From Caldilineae bacterium (GTDB lineage Bacteria; Chloroflexota; Anaerolineae; DTLA01): DNA of 34,017 nt. Each line of letters opens with the position of its first letter. Positions within the stretch are counted from its first letter, which is position 1. Of the stretch, positions 3,001 through 34,017 are shown one piece after another. The DNA lies in NCBI GenBank assembly GCA_037446815.1, contig JBBIHX010000018.1, forward strand, positions 1 through 34,017, written 5' to 3'. A program made the position numbers.

Positions 3001-6000
3001 TCCAGGTAGTCGGTGAGGATGAGGTTGCCGAGGGAGCGCAAGTAGCGGCGCAGTTGGTCGGAACGCTCGGCCTCGTCCAGCGACTCGCCCACATCCTTGG
3101 TCTCCACATAGCCGATGGTAACGGGTCCGGGCAGGCGGGACACGCGGAAGTCGGGCGCGCCGCATTCCACGCGCTTGGGTTCGTTGACGGCGCGGATGTC
3201 GCGCGCGAGGGATTCCAGCAGCGTTTTGAGCGCGGGGCGGTGGGTGTGCTCGGTGGCGTCGCCCGCCTTCAGGTTGGCCTCCACGGCTTGCAGGTATTCG
3301 CGGATCGGGTTCATGGCACGCTCCCGCACAGGATTCGCATTGTACGCCTGGGCTATTATACCACAGGTTTGGCGATTGCGCTCATCCGTTCCAGCGCATG
3401 GATGGCAAGGGAATTGTGGGGGCAGGTCGGGCAGGTCGGGCAGGTCTGAGACCTGCCCCTACGATTGCGCGGCGCGGCCGGATTTGACAACGGGTGCAGG
3501 GCGCGTATAATTGTTGCGCGACGTGTAACAGTGTTCCGCATTGCGCAACACCGCGGCCTGAGGAAGGGAAAGGCTTCTCATGGCAGACCGCCGAGAGCCA
3601 ACGGTGCAATCCGTAGAGCGGGCCATCGCTATCCTGCGATCCTTCTCCCGCGAGAAGCCCGAGCGCGGCGTCACCGAACTGAGCCGGGAACTCGGCGTCC
3701 ACAAGAGCACCGTGTTCCGTCTGTTGGCGACGCTGGAGCGCCACGGCCTGGTGGCCCGCAACCCAGAGACGGAGCGGTACCGCCTGGGGCTGGACCTGCT
3801 CATCCTTGCGGCGCAGGTGGTGGAGCACCTGGACCTGCGCGAGATCGCCCGCCCTCACTTGCGCGATCTGTCCGAACGTTGCCAAGAGACCGTGAACCTG
3901 GCCATCCTCCATGAGGGGCAGGTGATGGACATTGAACAATTCGCGCCACCAGTGCGAAGCGTCAAGAACATCGGCTGGGTTGGCCGCCGGATGCCGCCCC
4001 ACTGCACGGCGGCCGGCAAGGTGCTGCTGGCCCATCTCCCGCGGGACAGGCTGGAGCGGTTCCTACAGTCCCGGCTGGAGCGCCTGACCCCCCGAACCAT
4101 CACAGCCCCCGAACGCCTGCGCGAGGAATTGGAGCGCGTGCGCGCCCTGGGGTACGCCATCGCGGAGGAGGAACTGGAAGACGGGCTGAACGCGCTGGCG
4201 GCGCCGATTTACGACCACACCGGCGCGGTGAATGCCGCCGTGAGCCTGGCCGGGCCGGCGTTCCGCATCCCGCCGGCGATGTTCCCGCACCTGGCGGGGC
4301 TGCTTCTGGACACGTGCGCCCGAATCTCGGCCGAATTGGGATACCGACCGGACCGCGCGCATCCCTGACGCTGGGGCAGGGGGCCGTCCGGCAGATTCTG
4401 CTGTCATAGGAGACGCGTATGGAGACTGTTCTGAGGAGTGCCCGTAAGACCGTCGTCATCGGCCCGGACAAGCCGACCGTCCTCATCGGCGAGCGCATCA
4501 ATCCCACGGGCAAGAAGCGCCTGGCGGCCGCGTTGGCCGAGGGCAACCTGGACATCGTGCGCCAGGAGGCCGAGGCGCAGGTGGATGCGGGCGCGGATGT
4601 CCTGGACGTGAACGTTGGGGCCGCGGGGATTGATGAGGTGGATTTGCTCCCCAAGGCCGTGAAGTTGGTGGCCGAGACGGTGGACGTTCCGCTGTGCGTG
4701 GACAGCGCGAACCCTGCTGCTCTGCGCGCTGCTCTGACGCTGTACCGCGAGTTGGTGCCCAACGGCAAGCCGCTGGTGAACTCGGTCAACGGCGAGGCGG
4801 CGAGCATGGAGCGCGTCCTGCCGCTGGTGGCCGAATTCGGGACGGCGGTCATCGGCCTGGCGATGGACGAGGGCGGCATTCCTCCGACGGCAGAGGGCCG
4901 GCTGGCCGTGGCCCGTCGCATCGTGGAGCGCGCCGAGGCGTTGGGCATCCCGCGCCAGGATGTGGTGATTGACTGCCTGGCGCTGACCGTGGGGGCCGAC
5001 TCGCGCGCGGGCCTGGTTACCCTGGATGCCATCCGCATGGTGCGCGAGGAGTTGGGCGTGAACATGACGCTGGGGGCGAGCAACGTCTCCTTTGGCCTGC
5101 CGGAGCGCGAGACCATCAACTGGGTGTTCCTCGCGATGGCCATTGAGCGCGGGGTGAACTGCCCGATTGTGGATGTGGCCAAGGTGCGGCCCGCCGTCCT
5201 GGCAACCGACCTGCTGCTGGGGCGCGATGAGTACGCGATGCGCTATCTCAAGGACTACAAGAAGCGCCTGAAGGCCACGCAGGCCAAGTAGCCCGCGGCA
5301 CACGATTCTCGGCGAGGATTGCAGTGCCCACCGTCGTGCGCGATATTCCCATAACCCTGACCCCCGACGCGCTCTTGGAATCCCAGGCGCGCAAGGGACG
5401 GCCCGCGCTCCAGAAGCCCCTGGCGCGCCGCTCGGCGGAGCAGGCTGTCGCCATGGCCCTGGCGTTGGCGCGCCCGGCGGCGGTCTGGGATGAGTTCGCC
5501 GTGGCGAGCGTGTCGGACGGCGTCCTCGCGTTGGAGTCCCCCGCCGGCGTGCGCCACCTGACGATGGGACAAGGCGTCGGTCTCCTGCGGGAGGCGCGCC
5601 GAGTCTTCGTCGCCGTTTGGACCATTGGGCCGGAACTGGAGGCCCGCGTGAACCAATTGCAGCGCCAGGGGGATACCCTCTTGGCGTTCATGCTGGACGC
5701 GGCGGGCGTGCTGGCCCTGGGGGCGGTGGGCGAGGCGGTGCGGCGAATCGCCGAGGAGCGCGCGGCGGGGCAGGGTTGGGGCGTGTCGCCCGCGCTCAGC
5801 CCTGGGTCGCTCGTCGGGTGGCCGGTGGATGGGCAGCGGGACCTGTGCGCGCTCCTGCCGTTGCGCGAGATCGGCGTGGAACTGTCGCCCTACTGCGTGC
5901 TGCAGCCCCACAAGTCGTGCTCGGTGCTCATCGGGAGCGGGCCTGGCCTCCCGTCCAAGCACGTGGGCGCGCTGTGCCGCTACTGCTCGCTGGCCGAGAC

Positions 6001-33000: not shown

Positions 33001-34017
33001 GCTGAATCCCACGCTGCTGCTGTATTCCGAGCCGTCCACGCCGCTGAAGCATTCCGAGACGGCCACGGGCAAATTGCTGTTCATGGCCGAGAACATGTTG
33101 CCCATCGTGCACTCGCCCGCGCCCATGATGGGCGGGACGGCGCCGGTAACCATGGCGGGCGCGCTGGCCCTGGGCAACGCGGAAACGCTGTCCAGCCTGG
33201 TGATGCACCAATTGAAGCGCCCTGGTGCGCCGTTTGTGTACGGGAGCGGCCTGCACCACATGGACATGAAGACGACCATCAGCGTGTACGGCGCGCCGGA
33301 GTTCCAGTTGGCCCGCGTGGCCGTGGCCGAGATGGGGCGCTTCTACGGCTTGCCCACGTGGGGGTACGCCGGCCACTCGGACAGTTGCACCATGGACGAG
33401 CAGGCGGCGGCCGACGCGACGTTCTCCGTCCTGGTGGCGCTGCTGGCGGGCAACAACCTGGTGCACGATGTGGGCTACCTGGAAGCCGGCCTGACGACAT
33501 CGCCGGAGATGATCGTGTTCACCGCGGAAATCATCTCCATGATGCGCGCGTTCATGGGCGGCGTGGCGCTGGATGCCGAGTCGCTGGCGCTGGACGTGAT
33601 TCACAAGGTGGGGCCGGGCGGCGACTTCCTCACCCAGAAGCACACGCTGAAGCACTTCCGCGACCTGTGGGAGCCGAGCCTGTTCAGCCGCCAGCGGATG
33701 GAGGATTGGGTGGCGCAGGGCAGCAAGCGGTTGGGGCAGCGCCTGAAGGAGAAGACGCTTGCCATCCTTGAGAGCCACAAGCCGCAGCCGCTGCCGGATT
33801 CGGTGCGCGCGGAGATTGAGTACATTCTGAAGGGCAAGTGATGTGAGCAAGACACGCCGCAGGGGCACAAAGGGCAGGGAGTGCAGACCATTCTCTGCGC
33901 TTGCTGTGACCCTGCGGTGGGCAAAGCGGCCGCAAGATGGGCCAGGGCGCACGGGTGCAAACGTAGTGCGGGAGATTCTTCGGCGCTCCGCGCCTCAGAA
34001 TGACAGTTGGTGGGGGT

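Follow-up and report, generated by a model that had tools for sequence, protein, structure and literature searches.

The question raised by this locus is which compound its genes serve to degrade. The window, i.e. the whole stretch of 34,017 nucleotides analysed here, comes from an uncultured anaerobic Chloroflexota bacterium and carries a two-operon catabolic gene island that runs on into contig C200. The earlier note had proposed a route for hercynine, in which MttB-family methyltransferases strip off the methyl groups and the remaining histidine is passed to the Hut enzymes and a methylaspartate route. Using Pfam and NCBIfam profiles scored against the family cut-offs we confirmed the gene content of the island, with all of the named gene families in their places. 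The MttB, corrinoid and methyl-THF set in an ACS-bearing genome also stood (ACS is found outside the island), whereas the step from hercynine to Hut and the methylaspartate route did not. Based on the residues of the lyase and on the gene neighbours, we see roughly an even chance that the island serves to break down an N-methylated amine of the aspartate type, a C4 dicarboxylate. The window genes and consensus promoters described below lie on the plus strand except for a GntR/FCD gene (11818..12546, minus strand), which the Pfam annotation of the window gives as the sole minus-strand gene within 3580-33841.

Operon 1 is preceded by a sigma-70 consensus promoter at 3484..3511, which matches at 12 of 12 hexamer positions. 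The first gene encodes an IclR-family regulator (3580..4368; HTH_IclR and IclR_C domains), whose top NCBIfam matches, BhcR, KdgR and PcaR, each stay under their cut-off. It is followed by a predicted methyl-THF:corrinoid methyltransferase of the Pterin_bind type at 4419..5291 (PF00809; PRK07535 with 269 bits, cut-off 259) and by orf235 at 5324..6031, which was absent from the earlier note. The GC3 of 0.90 indicates that orf235 is a real gene. We found no Pfam match for it at E<=1, and its atlas feature score of 0.97 to clusters that carry the automatic name 'B12 dependent methionine synthase activation domain' offers a lead that it is possibly like the MetH activation domain. The next gene (~6040..8043, start placed by GC3) encodes a Hydantoinase_A/GlmL-like ASKHA ATPase with Hydant_A_N and Hydantoinase_A domains and a weak MutL match; its role is possibly corrinoid reactivation, and two RACo-type activases are encoded elsewhere in the genome. 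The corrinoid protein itself lies at 8089..8721 (B12-binding_2 and B12-binding domains; TIGR02370 with 227 bits, cut-off 215). Operon 1, from the IclR gene to MttB2, would supply the methyl-transfer hardware: the methyltransferase, the corrinoid protein and two MttB paralogues, with orf235 and the ASKHA ATPase as accessory proteins.

These two paralogues are MttB1 (8910..10355; PF06253 with 314 bits) and MttB2 (10367..11806; 388 bits). Further downstream the window holds MttB3 (25800..27239), MttB4 (27273..28730) and MttB5 (32411..33841), which match PF06253 as well. All five genes are single open frames of 476-485 aa that cover nearly the full PF06253 model. The Rfam model PYLIS_3 matches at 11327-11430 with 48.6 bits, inside the uninterrupted MttB2, and the match begins at an ATG codon (11327) that is aligned to the pyrrolysine position; MttB3 has a Cys at this position. 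A profile search of the genome for PylS stayed negative, with 20.7 bits as the best score against a cut-off of 178. With one open frame each and PylS absent, we agree that the five genes are uninterrupted and non-Pyl, and that the PYLIS_3 match is a look-alike inside an intact MttB2.

The best PDB match of MttB2, over its whole length, is MtgB (9yce; 294 bits) from the MtgB/MtgC/MtgA system of Desulfitobacterium hafniense (2qne, 9yce), a glycine betaine:THF methyltransferase system. Both combine an MttB-superfamily enzyme of the non-Pyl type with its cognate corrinoid protein and with a methyltransferase of the pterin-binding kind. In the accessible part of PMC13080624 the residues of MtgB that bind glycine betaine are given as Y97, R312, H348 and F356. 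MttB2 keeps one of the four, and H348 is the only one kept in the island; R312 is replaced by W, Y, M, H or F in the island paralogues, as mapped via the MttB2 alignment. Unlike MtgB/MtgC/MtgA, the island combines five to six paralogues with an ABC importer and predicted skeleton-degrading enzymes. Eubacterium limosum MtpB, MtcB, MtyB and MthB, which we compared by description only, are non-Pyl like the MttBs of the island. Known MttB enzymes take one methyl off a quaternary amine, and the E. limosum enzymes act on one quaternary amine each and feed the methyl-THF to acetogenesis. As the available text of PMC12155760 describes for MthB and the kinase MthK, the true substrate, in that case phosphocholine, can be made by an accessory enzyme. 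The island differs in that it has no kinase; its accessory enzymes are instead a MAL-family lyase, a Mo/W aldehyde oxidoreductase, an alcohol dehydrogenase (ADH) and a PrpD-family protein.

The GntR/FCD regulator is divergent from operon 2, with a promoter-like site of its own at 12583-12555. Operon 2 has a sigma-70 consensus promoter at 12602..12630 (12/12 positions, extended -10 TG), and within it we observed the inverted repeat TAGCACA-gca-TGTGCTA at 12610-12626, which may be an operator. The intergenic gaps of this operon are mostly <50 nt and there are two 4-nt overlaps. The importer comprises a family-5 solute-binding protein (SBP_bac_5; 12884..14611) with the Tat motif TRREFLR and a lipobox, and two Dpp/Opp/Nik-type permeases with a fused double ATPase (14917..19290; Pfam, NCBIfam). 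Known family-5 binding proteins mostly bind peptides, opines or metal chelates, not betaines, and the top-scoring solved relative of this one reaches just 110 bits. The next gene, hutU (19306..20955), is of the canonical urocanate hydratase type (TIGR01228 with 940 bits, cut-off 375) and scores under the cut-offs of both thiourocanate hydratase families. HutH (~20991..22556) matches the histidine ammonia-lyase model TIGR01225 with 653 bits (cut-off 539) and has the MIO motif GSLGASGDL. Next come a CBS-pair protein (22575..23228; Pfam) and an uncharacterised 4Fe-4S protein (~23351..24388) with two C-terminal 4Fe-4S motifs, both missing from the earlier gene list. A 100-N scaffold gap (23248..23347), likewise missing from the earlier note, separates them and has the same 11-mer on both sides. 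The true start of the 4Fe-4S gene lies at or before the gap. The join across the gap is supported by gap-free synteny in three related loci (L001-L003).

The MAL-family lyase (24397..25803) belongs to a divergent clade. It passes the methylaspartate ammonia-lyase equivalog TIGR01502 (463 bits, cut-off 286), and standard annotation thus disagrees with the non-canonical reading given below. With 43-47% identity to canonical MALs it has the same fold and the same catalytic set, K331, H194, Q329, D238, E273 and D307, as the enzyme of Clostridium tetanomorphicum (1kcz, 3zvh). According to the accessible part of PMC7241714, MAL holds the amino group with Q73 and Q172 and the C1 carboxylate with T360 and C361, and its methyl pocket consists of F170, Y356 and L384. 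The window lyase in contrast has Ala73, His170, Phe356, Ser360, Ala362 and Met384, together with a 52-aa beta-hairpin insertion whose conserved tip, SRRDLLT, is an internal Tat-like motif. The natural Ala73 is the change that widens the N-alkyl amine scope in the engineered variant Q73A, which takes alkylamines to N-substituted aspartates (accessible part of PMC7586795).

We compared the window proteins with 69 MAAL loci by tblastn, 29 of which form the Anaerolineae clade. Position 73 is never Gln in this clade (Ala in 15 and in the window, Glu in 9, Cys in 1, Ser in 1, truncated in 3) and His170 is found in 29/29. Ser360, Phe, Leu or Cys at position 356 and Met or Leu at 384 stand in place of the canonical residues. 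K331, H194 and the Mg ligands are retained in nearly all clade lyases, position 329 is Gln in 24/29 and His in 5/29, and the insertion measures 49-72 aa in the 26 lyases that are complete there, the other 3 being truncated. The gene neighbours differ as well. An MttB gene lies <=5 kb from the lyase in 27/29 clade loci and never does so for canonical MALs (none of the 25 Q73/F170 homologues), whereas GlmE lies beside the lyase in 0/29 clade loci compared to 17/25 of the canonical Q73/F170 loci. In the window, too, the lyase gene adjoins MttB genes and no glutamate mutase gene. We did not find glutamate mutase E in the genome, neither with profiles (best 30.9 bits, partial) nor with tblastn. We do not take the window lyase for a 3-methylaspartate ammonia-lyase that serves glutamate fermentation, and the proposed methylaspartate route is left without its mutase and without the residues of the 3-methylaspartate pocket.

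The conserved core of the 29 loci consists of the importer, the CBS protein, the MAAL-like lyase, MttB paralogues and a Mo/W aldehyde oxidoreductase. Many loci end at contig ends and gene absences are therefore soft in the following counts. We detected the ABC ATPase in 16/29 loci, the CBS protein in 17/29 (conserved between importer and lyase), the 4Fe-4S protein in 11/29, the Mo subunit in 9/29 and a tungsten AOR in 4/29. In most loci an orthologue of MttB4 (62-91% identity) lies 3' of the lyase, either adjacent to it or with MttB3 in between, and MttB5 is the best conserved paralogue with 73-96% identity across loci. No paper on this cassette was found in our literature search.

We read hutUH as a passenger of operon 2 that is specific to the lineage and stands outside the conserved pathway. 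The two genes are found inside the cassette in only 4/29 loci; among the 25 loci from which they are missing are 11 in which ATPase, CBS, (Fe-S protein or ADH) and lyase form an unbroken run. Furthermore, a whole-genome search detected hutU in only 1/5 other cassette-bearing genomes, which may be incomplete. These counts bear directly on hercynine. According to that reading it is imported and demethylated stepwise by the MttBs to histidine, which HutH and HutU would convert to glutamate, to be fermented by the methylaspartate route with the MAAL gene. In its favour, both hut genes are canonical and in this genus sit in the middle of operon 2, 15-18 nt from their neighbours, the only hutU found in the genome is this one, and hutI and ftcD lie at other places of the genome. 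The cassette of a second lineage (L012) includes hutUH too, though at a different position, and in an RNA library contigs from a relative with ~90% identity span the ATPase/hutU and hutH/CBS junctions, a weak hint as contigs do not prove a transcript. However, besides the scarcity of hutUH, the absence of glutamate mutase and the altered lyase pocket, this reading gives no role to the aldehyde oxidoreductase, the ADH or the PrpD-like protein, and to our knowledge no MttB enzyme demethylates below the tertiary amine. A literature search found no paper joining MttB with hercynine. We consider the hercynine pathway very improbable, though a histidine-linked side function or substrate in this genus is conceivable.

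Between MttB4 and MttB5 lie a fused 2Fe-2S and molybdopterin subunit (28737..31487; Pfam) and a FAD subunit (31484..32380; FAD_binding_5, CO_deh_flav_C). The best PDB match of the former is Desulfovibrio gigas MOP (1vlb, 1sij; 432 bits), in which two 2Fe-2S domains and the Mo domain are fused in the same way in a chain of ~910 aa. D. gigas MOP has no FAD subunit, unlike the island, where a separate one is encoded beside the Mo subunit. Compared to bovine XDH the catalytic Glu is retained, R880 is replaced by Tyr and E802 by Gln, which is also the position of Phe425 in MOP. From these similarities the Mo-flavoprotein is probably an aldehyde oxidoreductase. With a FAD subunit beside the Mo enzyme, hydroxylation of an N-heterocycle is a further possibility.

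An alternative would be a pathway for an N-methylated heteroaromatic, e.g. trigonelline or homarine, in which an MttB paralogue removes the methyl group and the Mo-flavoprotein then hydroxylates the ring, comparable to nicotinate fermentation. The full xanthine-dehydrogenase-family architecture with its separate FAD subunit fits this, as do the matches of the Mo subunit to nicotinate dehydrogenase subunits (269 and 182 bits) and the ~190-240 genomes in which, by the count of the earlier note, MTTB lies beside Mo-hydroxylase domains. In L057 and L058, however, a tungsten AOR takes the very place that the Mo and FAD subunits have in L007 and L018, X in the order lyase, MttB4, X, MttB5, and the AOR family is known for aldehydes, not for ring hydroxylation. 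Zn-ADH is part of the cassette in 10/29 loci (in the genome studied here a copy with 67% identity lies at the C40 contig edge), the best solved relative of the Mo subunit is an aldehyde oxidoreductase, and neither the MAL-family lyase nor the PrpD-family enzyme would have a role. Our literature search found no paper joining MttB with trigonelline or homarine. A heteroaromatic substrate seems very improbable to us.

Past the window, and beyond what the earlier note described, the island continues on C200 with MttB6, a Cys/Met-type PLP enzyme and an MmgE/PrpD protein similar to iminodisuccinate (IDS) epimerase. The C200 DNA is 89% identical to the stretch after MttB5 in L001 and L002, and in L011, L021, L057 and L058 an orthologue of the PrpD-like protein (60-66% identity) is encoded after MttB4 or MttB5. 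IDS epimerase (2hp0, 2hp3) is its best solved relative, at a low similarity of 107 bits. The substrate of IDS epimerase is an N-substituted aspartate, and there too the epimerase is paired with a C-N lyase: both work together in the iminodisuccinate breakdown of Agrobacterium, where the lyase is presumably not a MAL-family enzyme. The MmgE/PrpD family also includes dehydratases, decarboxylases and methylsuccinate isomerase, and in the available part of PMC12290011 all known members act on C4 1,4-dicarboxylates substituted at C2 or C3.

Taken as one pathway for an N-methylated aspartate-type amine, the genes could act as follows, where we infer both the order of the steps and every activity. 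An N-methylated amino-acid-like compound would enter via the Dpp-type importer. With its N-methyl groups the MttB paralogues would methylate the corrinoid protein in the Co(I) state, from which the methyltransferase would pass them to THF and into the Wood-Ljungdahl pathway. The skeleton left would be an aspartate-type C4 1,4-dicarboxylate still bearing an N-substituent. Where needed, the alcohol dehydrogenase and the Mo/W aldehyde oxidoreductase would raise it to the acid level and a PrpD-like or racemase-like protein would epimerise it, and the lyase would split it into a fumarate-type acid and (methyl)amine. As a speculative candidate we name homoserine betaine, degraded via aspartate betaine.

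The lyase could also run in the opposite direction, adding methylamines to fumarate, so that the non-Pyl MttBs would demethylate the N-methylated aspartates and fumarate would be regenerated. If true, this would be a pyrrolysine-independent methylamine route. The widened amine pocket, the reversibility of MAL chemistry, the alkylamines taken by Q73A and the several MttB paralogues beside the lyase in a genome lacking PylS are consistent with it. Against it speak the dedicated Dpp-type importer in the cassette at 16/29 loci and the ADH, aldehyde oxidoreductase and epimerase-like genes, which would be left without a role. Low environmental methylamine would probably make the equilibrium unfavourable, and we know of no MAL for which addition of a tertiary amine to fumarate was demonstrated. 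We regard such amine capture as the most far-fetched of the readings.

Finally, there may be no single pathway. The island would then be a collection point of independent modules, co-regulated or co-acquired: the importer and hutUH for histidine or peptides, several MttBs that would each take another of the common quaternary amines, and the lyase with the Mo enzyme. Pairwise identity among the genome's seven MttB paralogues is only 27-54%, a second small set on contig C9 holds an MttB, ADH, IclR and corrinoid protein, and the make-up of the cassette varies by locus (MttB paralogues, ADH, Mo enzyme or AOR, Fe-S protein, epimerase-like genes). Such variation is as compatible with several substrates, or with a loose linkage of modules, as with one pathway. 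The patchy distribution across Anaerolineae is a further point for separate modules. On the other side, lyase and MttB adjoin in nearly the whole clade and never with canonical MALs, the start of MttB3 overlaps the stop of the lyase by 4 nt, and the order importer-CBS-lyase recurs in 16 loci. The swap of the Mo enzyme for a W enzyme at the same position also implies a function kept within one pathway. We judge a collection of unrelated modules to be unlikely, although it deserves serious consideration.

The cassette is modular and common to a scattered set of Anaerolineae. We found it in 4/4 genomes of the genus, in 3/56 other genomes of the class (one only 34% identical) and in 4/400 of a phylum sample, and this patchy distribution suggests mobile modules. 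As no island paralogue resembles the known glycine-betaine enzyme, it is plausible that the MttB superfamily has a new substrate here, one that is tied to the catabolism of its skeleton.

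An ORF listing together with Pfam and NCBIfam scans bore out all gene families that the earlier note had placed along the island, including the IclR regulator, the Hydantoinase_A-like ATPase, the Dpp-type importer, HutU, HutH, the methylaspartate ammonia-lyase (MAAL) homologue and the Mo and FAD subunits. The claim that all but one gene share a strand also held, with a GntR/FCD regulator as the sole minus-strand gene in 3580–33841. The methyl-transfer set comprises a corrinoid protein (8089–8721) and a Pterin_bind methyltransferase (4419–5291; PRK07535 above cut-off), and ACS is encoded in the genome as had been stated. 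The importer consists of a family-5 binding protein, two permeases and a fused ATPase, and the Mo-flavoprotein of a fused 2Fe-2S/Mo subunit and an FAD subunit. The binding protein carries a Tat-lipoprotein signal. Its best PDB match reached 110 bits ('peptide ABC transporter substrate-binding protein') and NikA, HbpA, AgaA and AccA scored lower, so that the solved relatives are too distant to name its ligand. Three genes had been missed: orf235, a real gene judged by GC3, a CBS-pair protein and a 4Fe-4S protein whose Atlas matches are uncharacterised Fer4 clusters only. Upstream of the island a 1075-aa gene at 102–3329 (minus strand) combines an N6 DNA methylase domain with a C-terminal specificity domain of Type ISP (333 bits); its product looks like a Type ISP-like restriction-modification enzyme and has no relation to the island finding.

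The genome is a MAG of 3.19 Mb in 265 contigs (93.6% complete), and its relatives are Anaerolineae/Chloroflexota MAGs. As 63 of its 65 N-runs are exactly 100 N long, its contigs are scaffolds. One such gap of 100 N interrupts the island at 23248–23347, with the same 11-mer on either side. The sequence is probably contiguous here, since in relatives without the gap the CBS gene is followed directly by the Fe-S gene, which backs the join. The island is likely to continue on contig C200 of the same genome, which shows 89% DNA identity to the sequence downstream of MttB5 in loci L001 and L002 of the closest relatives and encodes, at 510–4625 (L089), a further MttB (MttB6), a Cys/Met PLP enzyme and an MmgE/PrpD-family protein. 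Contig C40, with an alcohol dehydrogenase of the cassette type, might adjoin the window as well, but its orientation does not fit.

Sigma-70 consensus promoters agreeing at 12 of 12 positions were found before the IclR gene (3484–3511) and before the binding protein (12602–12630), in the only two sizeable intergenic regions of the island. The second region additionally holds a divergent promoter-like site for the GntR gene and, within the consensus promoter itself, a 7+7 inverted repeat (12610–12626) that may be the GntR operator. The promoter is followed by a leader of ∼250 nt (12631–12883); a search of 12540–12900 against Rfam at E ≤ 1 gave no match and thus no known riboswitch in this leader. 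From 12884 to 33841 most gaps are shorter than 50 nt, two gene pairs overlap by 4 nt and we saw no strong internal promoter or terminator, so hutU and hutH would lie inside one transcription unit of ∼21 kb. In an RNA library, contigs of a ∼90% identical relative, read for presence and bridging only, span the ATPase/hutU and hutH/CBS junctions. This is a weak hint of co-transcription, as contigs are no proof of one continuous transcript and RNA libraries may contain DNA.

Non-pyrrolysine MttB enzymes are plentiful in anaerobes, and the known MttB chemistry takes one methyl group off a quaternary amine. To our knowledge only few substrates have been established for them, namely glycine betaine, proline betaine, carnitine, gamma-butyrobetaine and phosphocholine. 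The five MttB genes of the window (MttB1 to MttB5) each form one open frame of 476–485 aa with a full-length PF06253 domain and no in-frame TAG/UAG, as the earlier note had it; PylS was not found in the genome, and genes for a corrinoid protein and a THF methyltransferase lie nearby. The PYLIS_3 match at 11327–11430 (48.6 bits) falls within the uninterrupted MttB2 gene. It begins at 11327 with the ATG codon of Met321, the residue that aligns with the UAG/pyrrolysine position of true MttB, and for this reason we read it as conserved coding homology and no recoding signal. MttB3 has Cys at the same position. The genome encodes seven MttB paralogues in total, with pairwise identities of 27–54%. 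According to PMC13080624 glycine betaine is bound in MtgB by Y97, R312, H348 and F356. MttB2 keeps H348 and has Tyr for R312, Met for F356 and nothing aromatic at Y97, and in a 7-sequence alignment the other paralogues show W, M, H or F instead of R312. No paralogue of the genome keeps the MtgB binding set, in contrast to what a glycine betaine-specific enzyme of the MtgB type would show.

No RamA-type activase was found within the window. Two RACo homologues are encoded elsewhere in the genome (contigs C10 and C2), so neither the ASKHA ATPase nor orf235 need be an activase. The orf235 product has no Pfam match, and its likeness to MetH activation-domain clusters is one of language-model features only. 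The ASKHA ATPase, which is GlmL/hydantoinase_A-like, comes directly after it. Together the two genes (5324–8043) separate the methyltransferase gene from that of the corrinoid protein, and they may form a corrinoid repair module. A second, small set was observed on contig C9 of the same genome (L071, 3799–8107) with an MttB, a Zn-alcohol dehydrogenase, a divergent IclR regulator and a corrinoid protein that is MtgC-like but under cut-off (238 bits).

To compare the island with related loci we searched with the MAAL homologue, called the lyase below (24397–25803, plus strand), which gave 69 loci, compared these with all window proteins by tblastn and grouped the leftover ORFs into clusters. An Anaerolineae clade of 29 loci, with lyases 55–85% identical, carries a modular cassette. 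MttB lies within 5 kb of the lyase in 27 of these 29 loci. The other modules are found less often: the CBS protein in 17, the ABC ATPase in 16, the Fe-S protein in 11, the Zn-alcohol dehydrogenase in 10 (with two more partial copies by DNA match), the Mo subunit, mostly together with the FAD subunit, in 9, and an AOR-family tungsten enzyme, a racemase-like gene and hutUH in 4 each. In loci L011, L021, L057 and L058 the corrinoid protein, the methyl-THF methyltransferase and MttB1 or MttB2 stand directly upstream of the importer. Two fragments aside, the 38 remaining loci have no MttB neighbour, and 17 of them have glmE just upstream. With such a varied composition the island might be a mosaic of unrelated modules; next to the pairing of MttB and lyase in 27/29 loci we consider this unlikely, though it deserves to be taken seriously.

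The distribution is rare and patchy. All four other genomes of the genus matched, compared to 3 of 56 genomes in the rest of the class (one at only 34% identity), and in an even sample of the phylum any MAL homologue occurred in 4 of 400 Chloroflexota genomes, each ∼50% identical. The organisms concerned come from sediments, hot springs and oil-associated samples (Chloroflexota). In four loci of the subclade with Glu73/Phe74 in the lyase (L004, L008, L009 and L020), a gene for a hypA-like nickel chaperone separates the Fe-S protein gene from that of the lyase. An MFS transporter, a phosphotriesterase-family protein and a D-2-hydroxyacid dehydrogenase occur in some of them, and no ABC importer was seen within these four.

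The earlier note had proposed that hercynine is demethylated by the MttB paralogues and its histidine skeleton then passed through Hut and the methylaspartate route. HutU and HutH are indeed canonical: both passed their equivalog models and HutH has the MIO (ASG) motif, while hutI (481 bits) and ftcD are located on other contigs. A role in ergothioneine or thiourocanate catabolism was rejected, as HutU stayed below the cut-offs of the thiourocanate and S-methyl-thiourocanate hydratase models (676 vs 930 and 713 vs 880 bits). However, the four loci with hutUH are those of the three closest relatives and L012, which has the genes at a different position, and a whole-genome search of five other cassette-bearing genomes, whose completeness is not established, detected hutU in one, away from the cassette. 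Hut as a part of the cassette's pathway thus found no backing. Because of these frequencies the conserved pathway would have no need for Hut, and we infer that for this genus hutUH is an addition transcribed together with the cassette. A quick lyase tree does not separate one from two origins of the insertion. The genome has a second aromatic amino-acid lyase beside EF-G on contig C76 (L072, 591–2324), 40% identical to the HutH of the window and just under the hutH equivalog cut-off (506 vs 539 bits).

The lyase passes its family models (PF07476, 341 bits; PF05034, 157 bits; TIGR01502, 463 bits vs a cut-off of 286). We numbered its residues via a Clostridium homologue according to the 3-methylaspartate ammonia-lyase of C. 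tetanomorphicum. K331, H194, Q329, D238, E273, D307, Q172 and C361 are all kept. According to PMC7241714 and PMC7586795, K331 and H194 are the catalytic bases, Q329 is the enolate partner and D238, E273 and D307 are the Mg ligands, and the first of these sources assigns the amino pocket to Gln73 and Gln172 and the hydrophobic pocket for the 3-methyl group to F170, Y356 and L384. Both pockets are changed in the window protein. It has Ala at 73, and none of the 26 clade sequences that cover this position has Gln73; in the methyl pocket we found His170, which is present in 29/29 clade members, Phe356 and Met384, and further changes are Ser360 and Ala362. The engineered Q73A mutant accepts alkylamines and makes N-substituted aspartates (PMC7586795).

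The 26 clade sequences that are complete at the site concerned all contain a clade-specific insertion of 49–72 aa. In the window protein it covers about residues 121–169, which an AlphaFold model (mean pLDDT 87.6) folds into a beta-hairpin arm whose tip is flexible. The tip bears a nearly invariant [ST]RR[DE][LF][LFV]T motif (SRRDLLT in the window protein). This motif is twin-arginine-like but internal to the protein, with charged residues and no hydrophobic stretch behind it. It is a guess that the tip is a docking peptide.

A 3-methylaspartate ammonia-lyase works with glutamate mutase (glmS, glmL and glmE), mostly encoded beside it, and here the earlier proposal failed. The best GlmE score in the genome was a partial 30.9 bits, tblastn with GlmE or GlmS gave no match, and GlmE adjoins the lyase gene in 0 of the 29 clade loci compared to 17 of the 25 loci with Q73/F170. 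Together with the altered methyl pocket this argues that the lyase is no glutamate-fermentation enzyme. The hercynine route, which would need Hut, the mutase and a lyase with a 3-methylaspartate pocket, is therefore improbable: there is no such pocket and no glutamate mutase in this genome, and hutUH is confined to 4/29 loci.

For a wider survey we took the 150 best cluster representatives from a library of 1.84 billion proteins and aligned the 110 that were full-length (≥380 aa). Among these, the canonical Q73/F170 signature is in the minority (8/110), and three to six belong to the clade of the window lyase. In Alphaproteobacteria (L060, L063, L064, L065 and L068) MAL-family paralogues with Ile73/Leu74/Leu170 stand in arrays of two or three, and three of these five loci have a Dpp-type ABC transporter next to the array. 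These paralogues are another non-canonical subfamily and may likewise act on N-substituted aspartates. A group from Bdellovibrionota has Ser73, His170 and Ser172.

The best PDB match of the Mo enzyme is the D. gigas aldehyde oxidoreductase MOP, and both have the fused 2Fe-2S and Mo layout, whereas the additional FAD subunit is a feature of the window enzyme. It scored 599 bits against NF045668 (cut-off 1100) and stayed under the cut-off of all xanthine dehydrogenase equivalog models. The catalytic Glu1261 (bovine XDH numbering) is kept; Gln and Tyr replace Glu802 and Arg880, which we take to be the purine-binding residues. We therefore rejected a xanthine dehydrogenase in the strict sense. In L057 and L058 the tungsten AOR stands exactly where L007 and L018 have the Mo and FAD subunits, in the order lyase, MttB4, oxidoreductase, MttB5. 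This in-place swap argues for an aldehyde as the substrate of the Mo enzyme. Its use as a ring hydroxylase in the breakdown of an N-methyl heteroaromatic compound is accordingly rather improbable.

The genes on C200 add to the picture. In four other loci the gene after MttB4 or MttB5 is an orthologue of the PrpD-like protein, whose best solved relative is iminodisuccinate (IDS) epimerase. According to PMC12290011, all characterised MmgE/PrpD members act on C4 1,4-dicarboxylates substituted at C2 or C3. The PrpD-like and racemase-like genes are mutually exclusive, albeit in small numbers (five loci including our own genome and four loci, respectively). The best match of the PLP enzyme is methionine gamma-lyase, under cut-off.

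The predicted functions converge on one type of compound. The MAL-family lyase and the PrpD-family protein point directly to a substituted succinate or aspartate skeleton, and the Cys/Met PLP enzyme is a softer indication of a homoserine-type C4 amino acid. The alcohol dehydrogenase and the aldehyde oxidoreductase suggest that one carboxylate derives from an alcohol or aldehyde, N-methyl groups are suggested by the MttB genes, and the widened amine pocket suggests that an N-substituent is still on the substrate at the lyase step. Judged from gene content, residues and neighbourhood, there is an even chance that the island serves the breakdown of an N-methylated, aspartate-type C4 dicarboxylate amine. 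The scheme that would fit the known MttB chemistry most economically has three steps. A betaine of the C4 amino-acid series would be imported and oxidised to the aspartate level, at least one methyl group would be removed by a corrinoid-dependent MttB, and the lyase would then split the product into fumarate and a methylated amine. A more specific and tentative proposal, which we hold with little confidence, takes the window protein for a naturally occurring N-alkyl-aspartate lyase with a methylated amine as a product, which together with the MttB paralogues degrades such a C4 amino-acid betaine. The reverse use of the lyase, capturing methylamine on fumarate, seems very improbable to us.

DGTS betaine lipids have homoserine betaine as their head group, and it also occurs as a free algal metabolite. 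In this variant of the betaine scheme, the alcohol dehydrogenase and the Mo or W aldehyde oxidoreductase would convert it to aspartate betaine; as the actual substrate it is a doubtful candidate.

The MttB, corrinoid and THF systems are already known. Among open-access papers and preprints, those that we found on MttB and Chloroflexota were surveys only. In the same sources we found no paper naming MttB together with hercynine, trigonelline, homarine, stachydrine or methylaspartate ammonia-lyase, no match for aspartate betaine, trimethylaspartate or an N-methylaspartate lyase, and none on the catabolism of homoserine betaine, where the literature deals with lipids and metabolomics. We found no description of such a cassette there either, though a report in a subscription journal could escape this search. 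New would be the fixed coupling of MttB to a divergent MAL-family lyase, a cassette that also houses a PrpD-family enzyme and an aldehyde oxidoreductase of the Mo or W type, and a natural lyase clade that lacks Q73 and has a Tat-like insertion.

Ancient MttB paralogues are fixed here beside a lyase, an aldehyde oxidoreductase and an epimerase-like enzyme, which all point to a substituted C4 dicarboxylate and therefore yield a short and concrete list of test compounds. If the proposed working is true, the engineered Q73A enzyme would have in this lyase its first known counterpart from nature, and the island would add a new substrate class to the MttB superfamily and a new natural reaction to the enolase superfamily. 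It would also be the first described anaerobic fate of betaine-lipid head groups. The annotation 'methylaspartate ammonia-lyase' would then hide subfamilies with other amine specificities, and the cassette would tie the turnover of osmolytes or lipid head groups to acetogenic C1 metabolism, and with it to carbon and nitrogen cycling.
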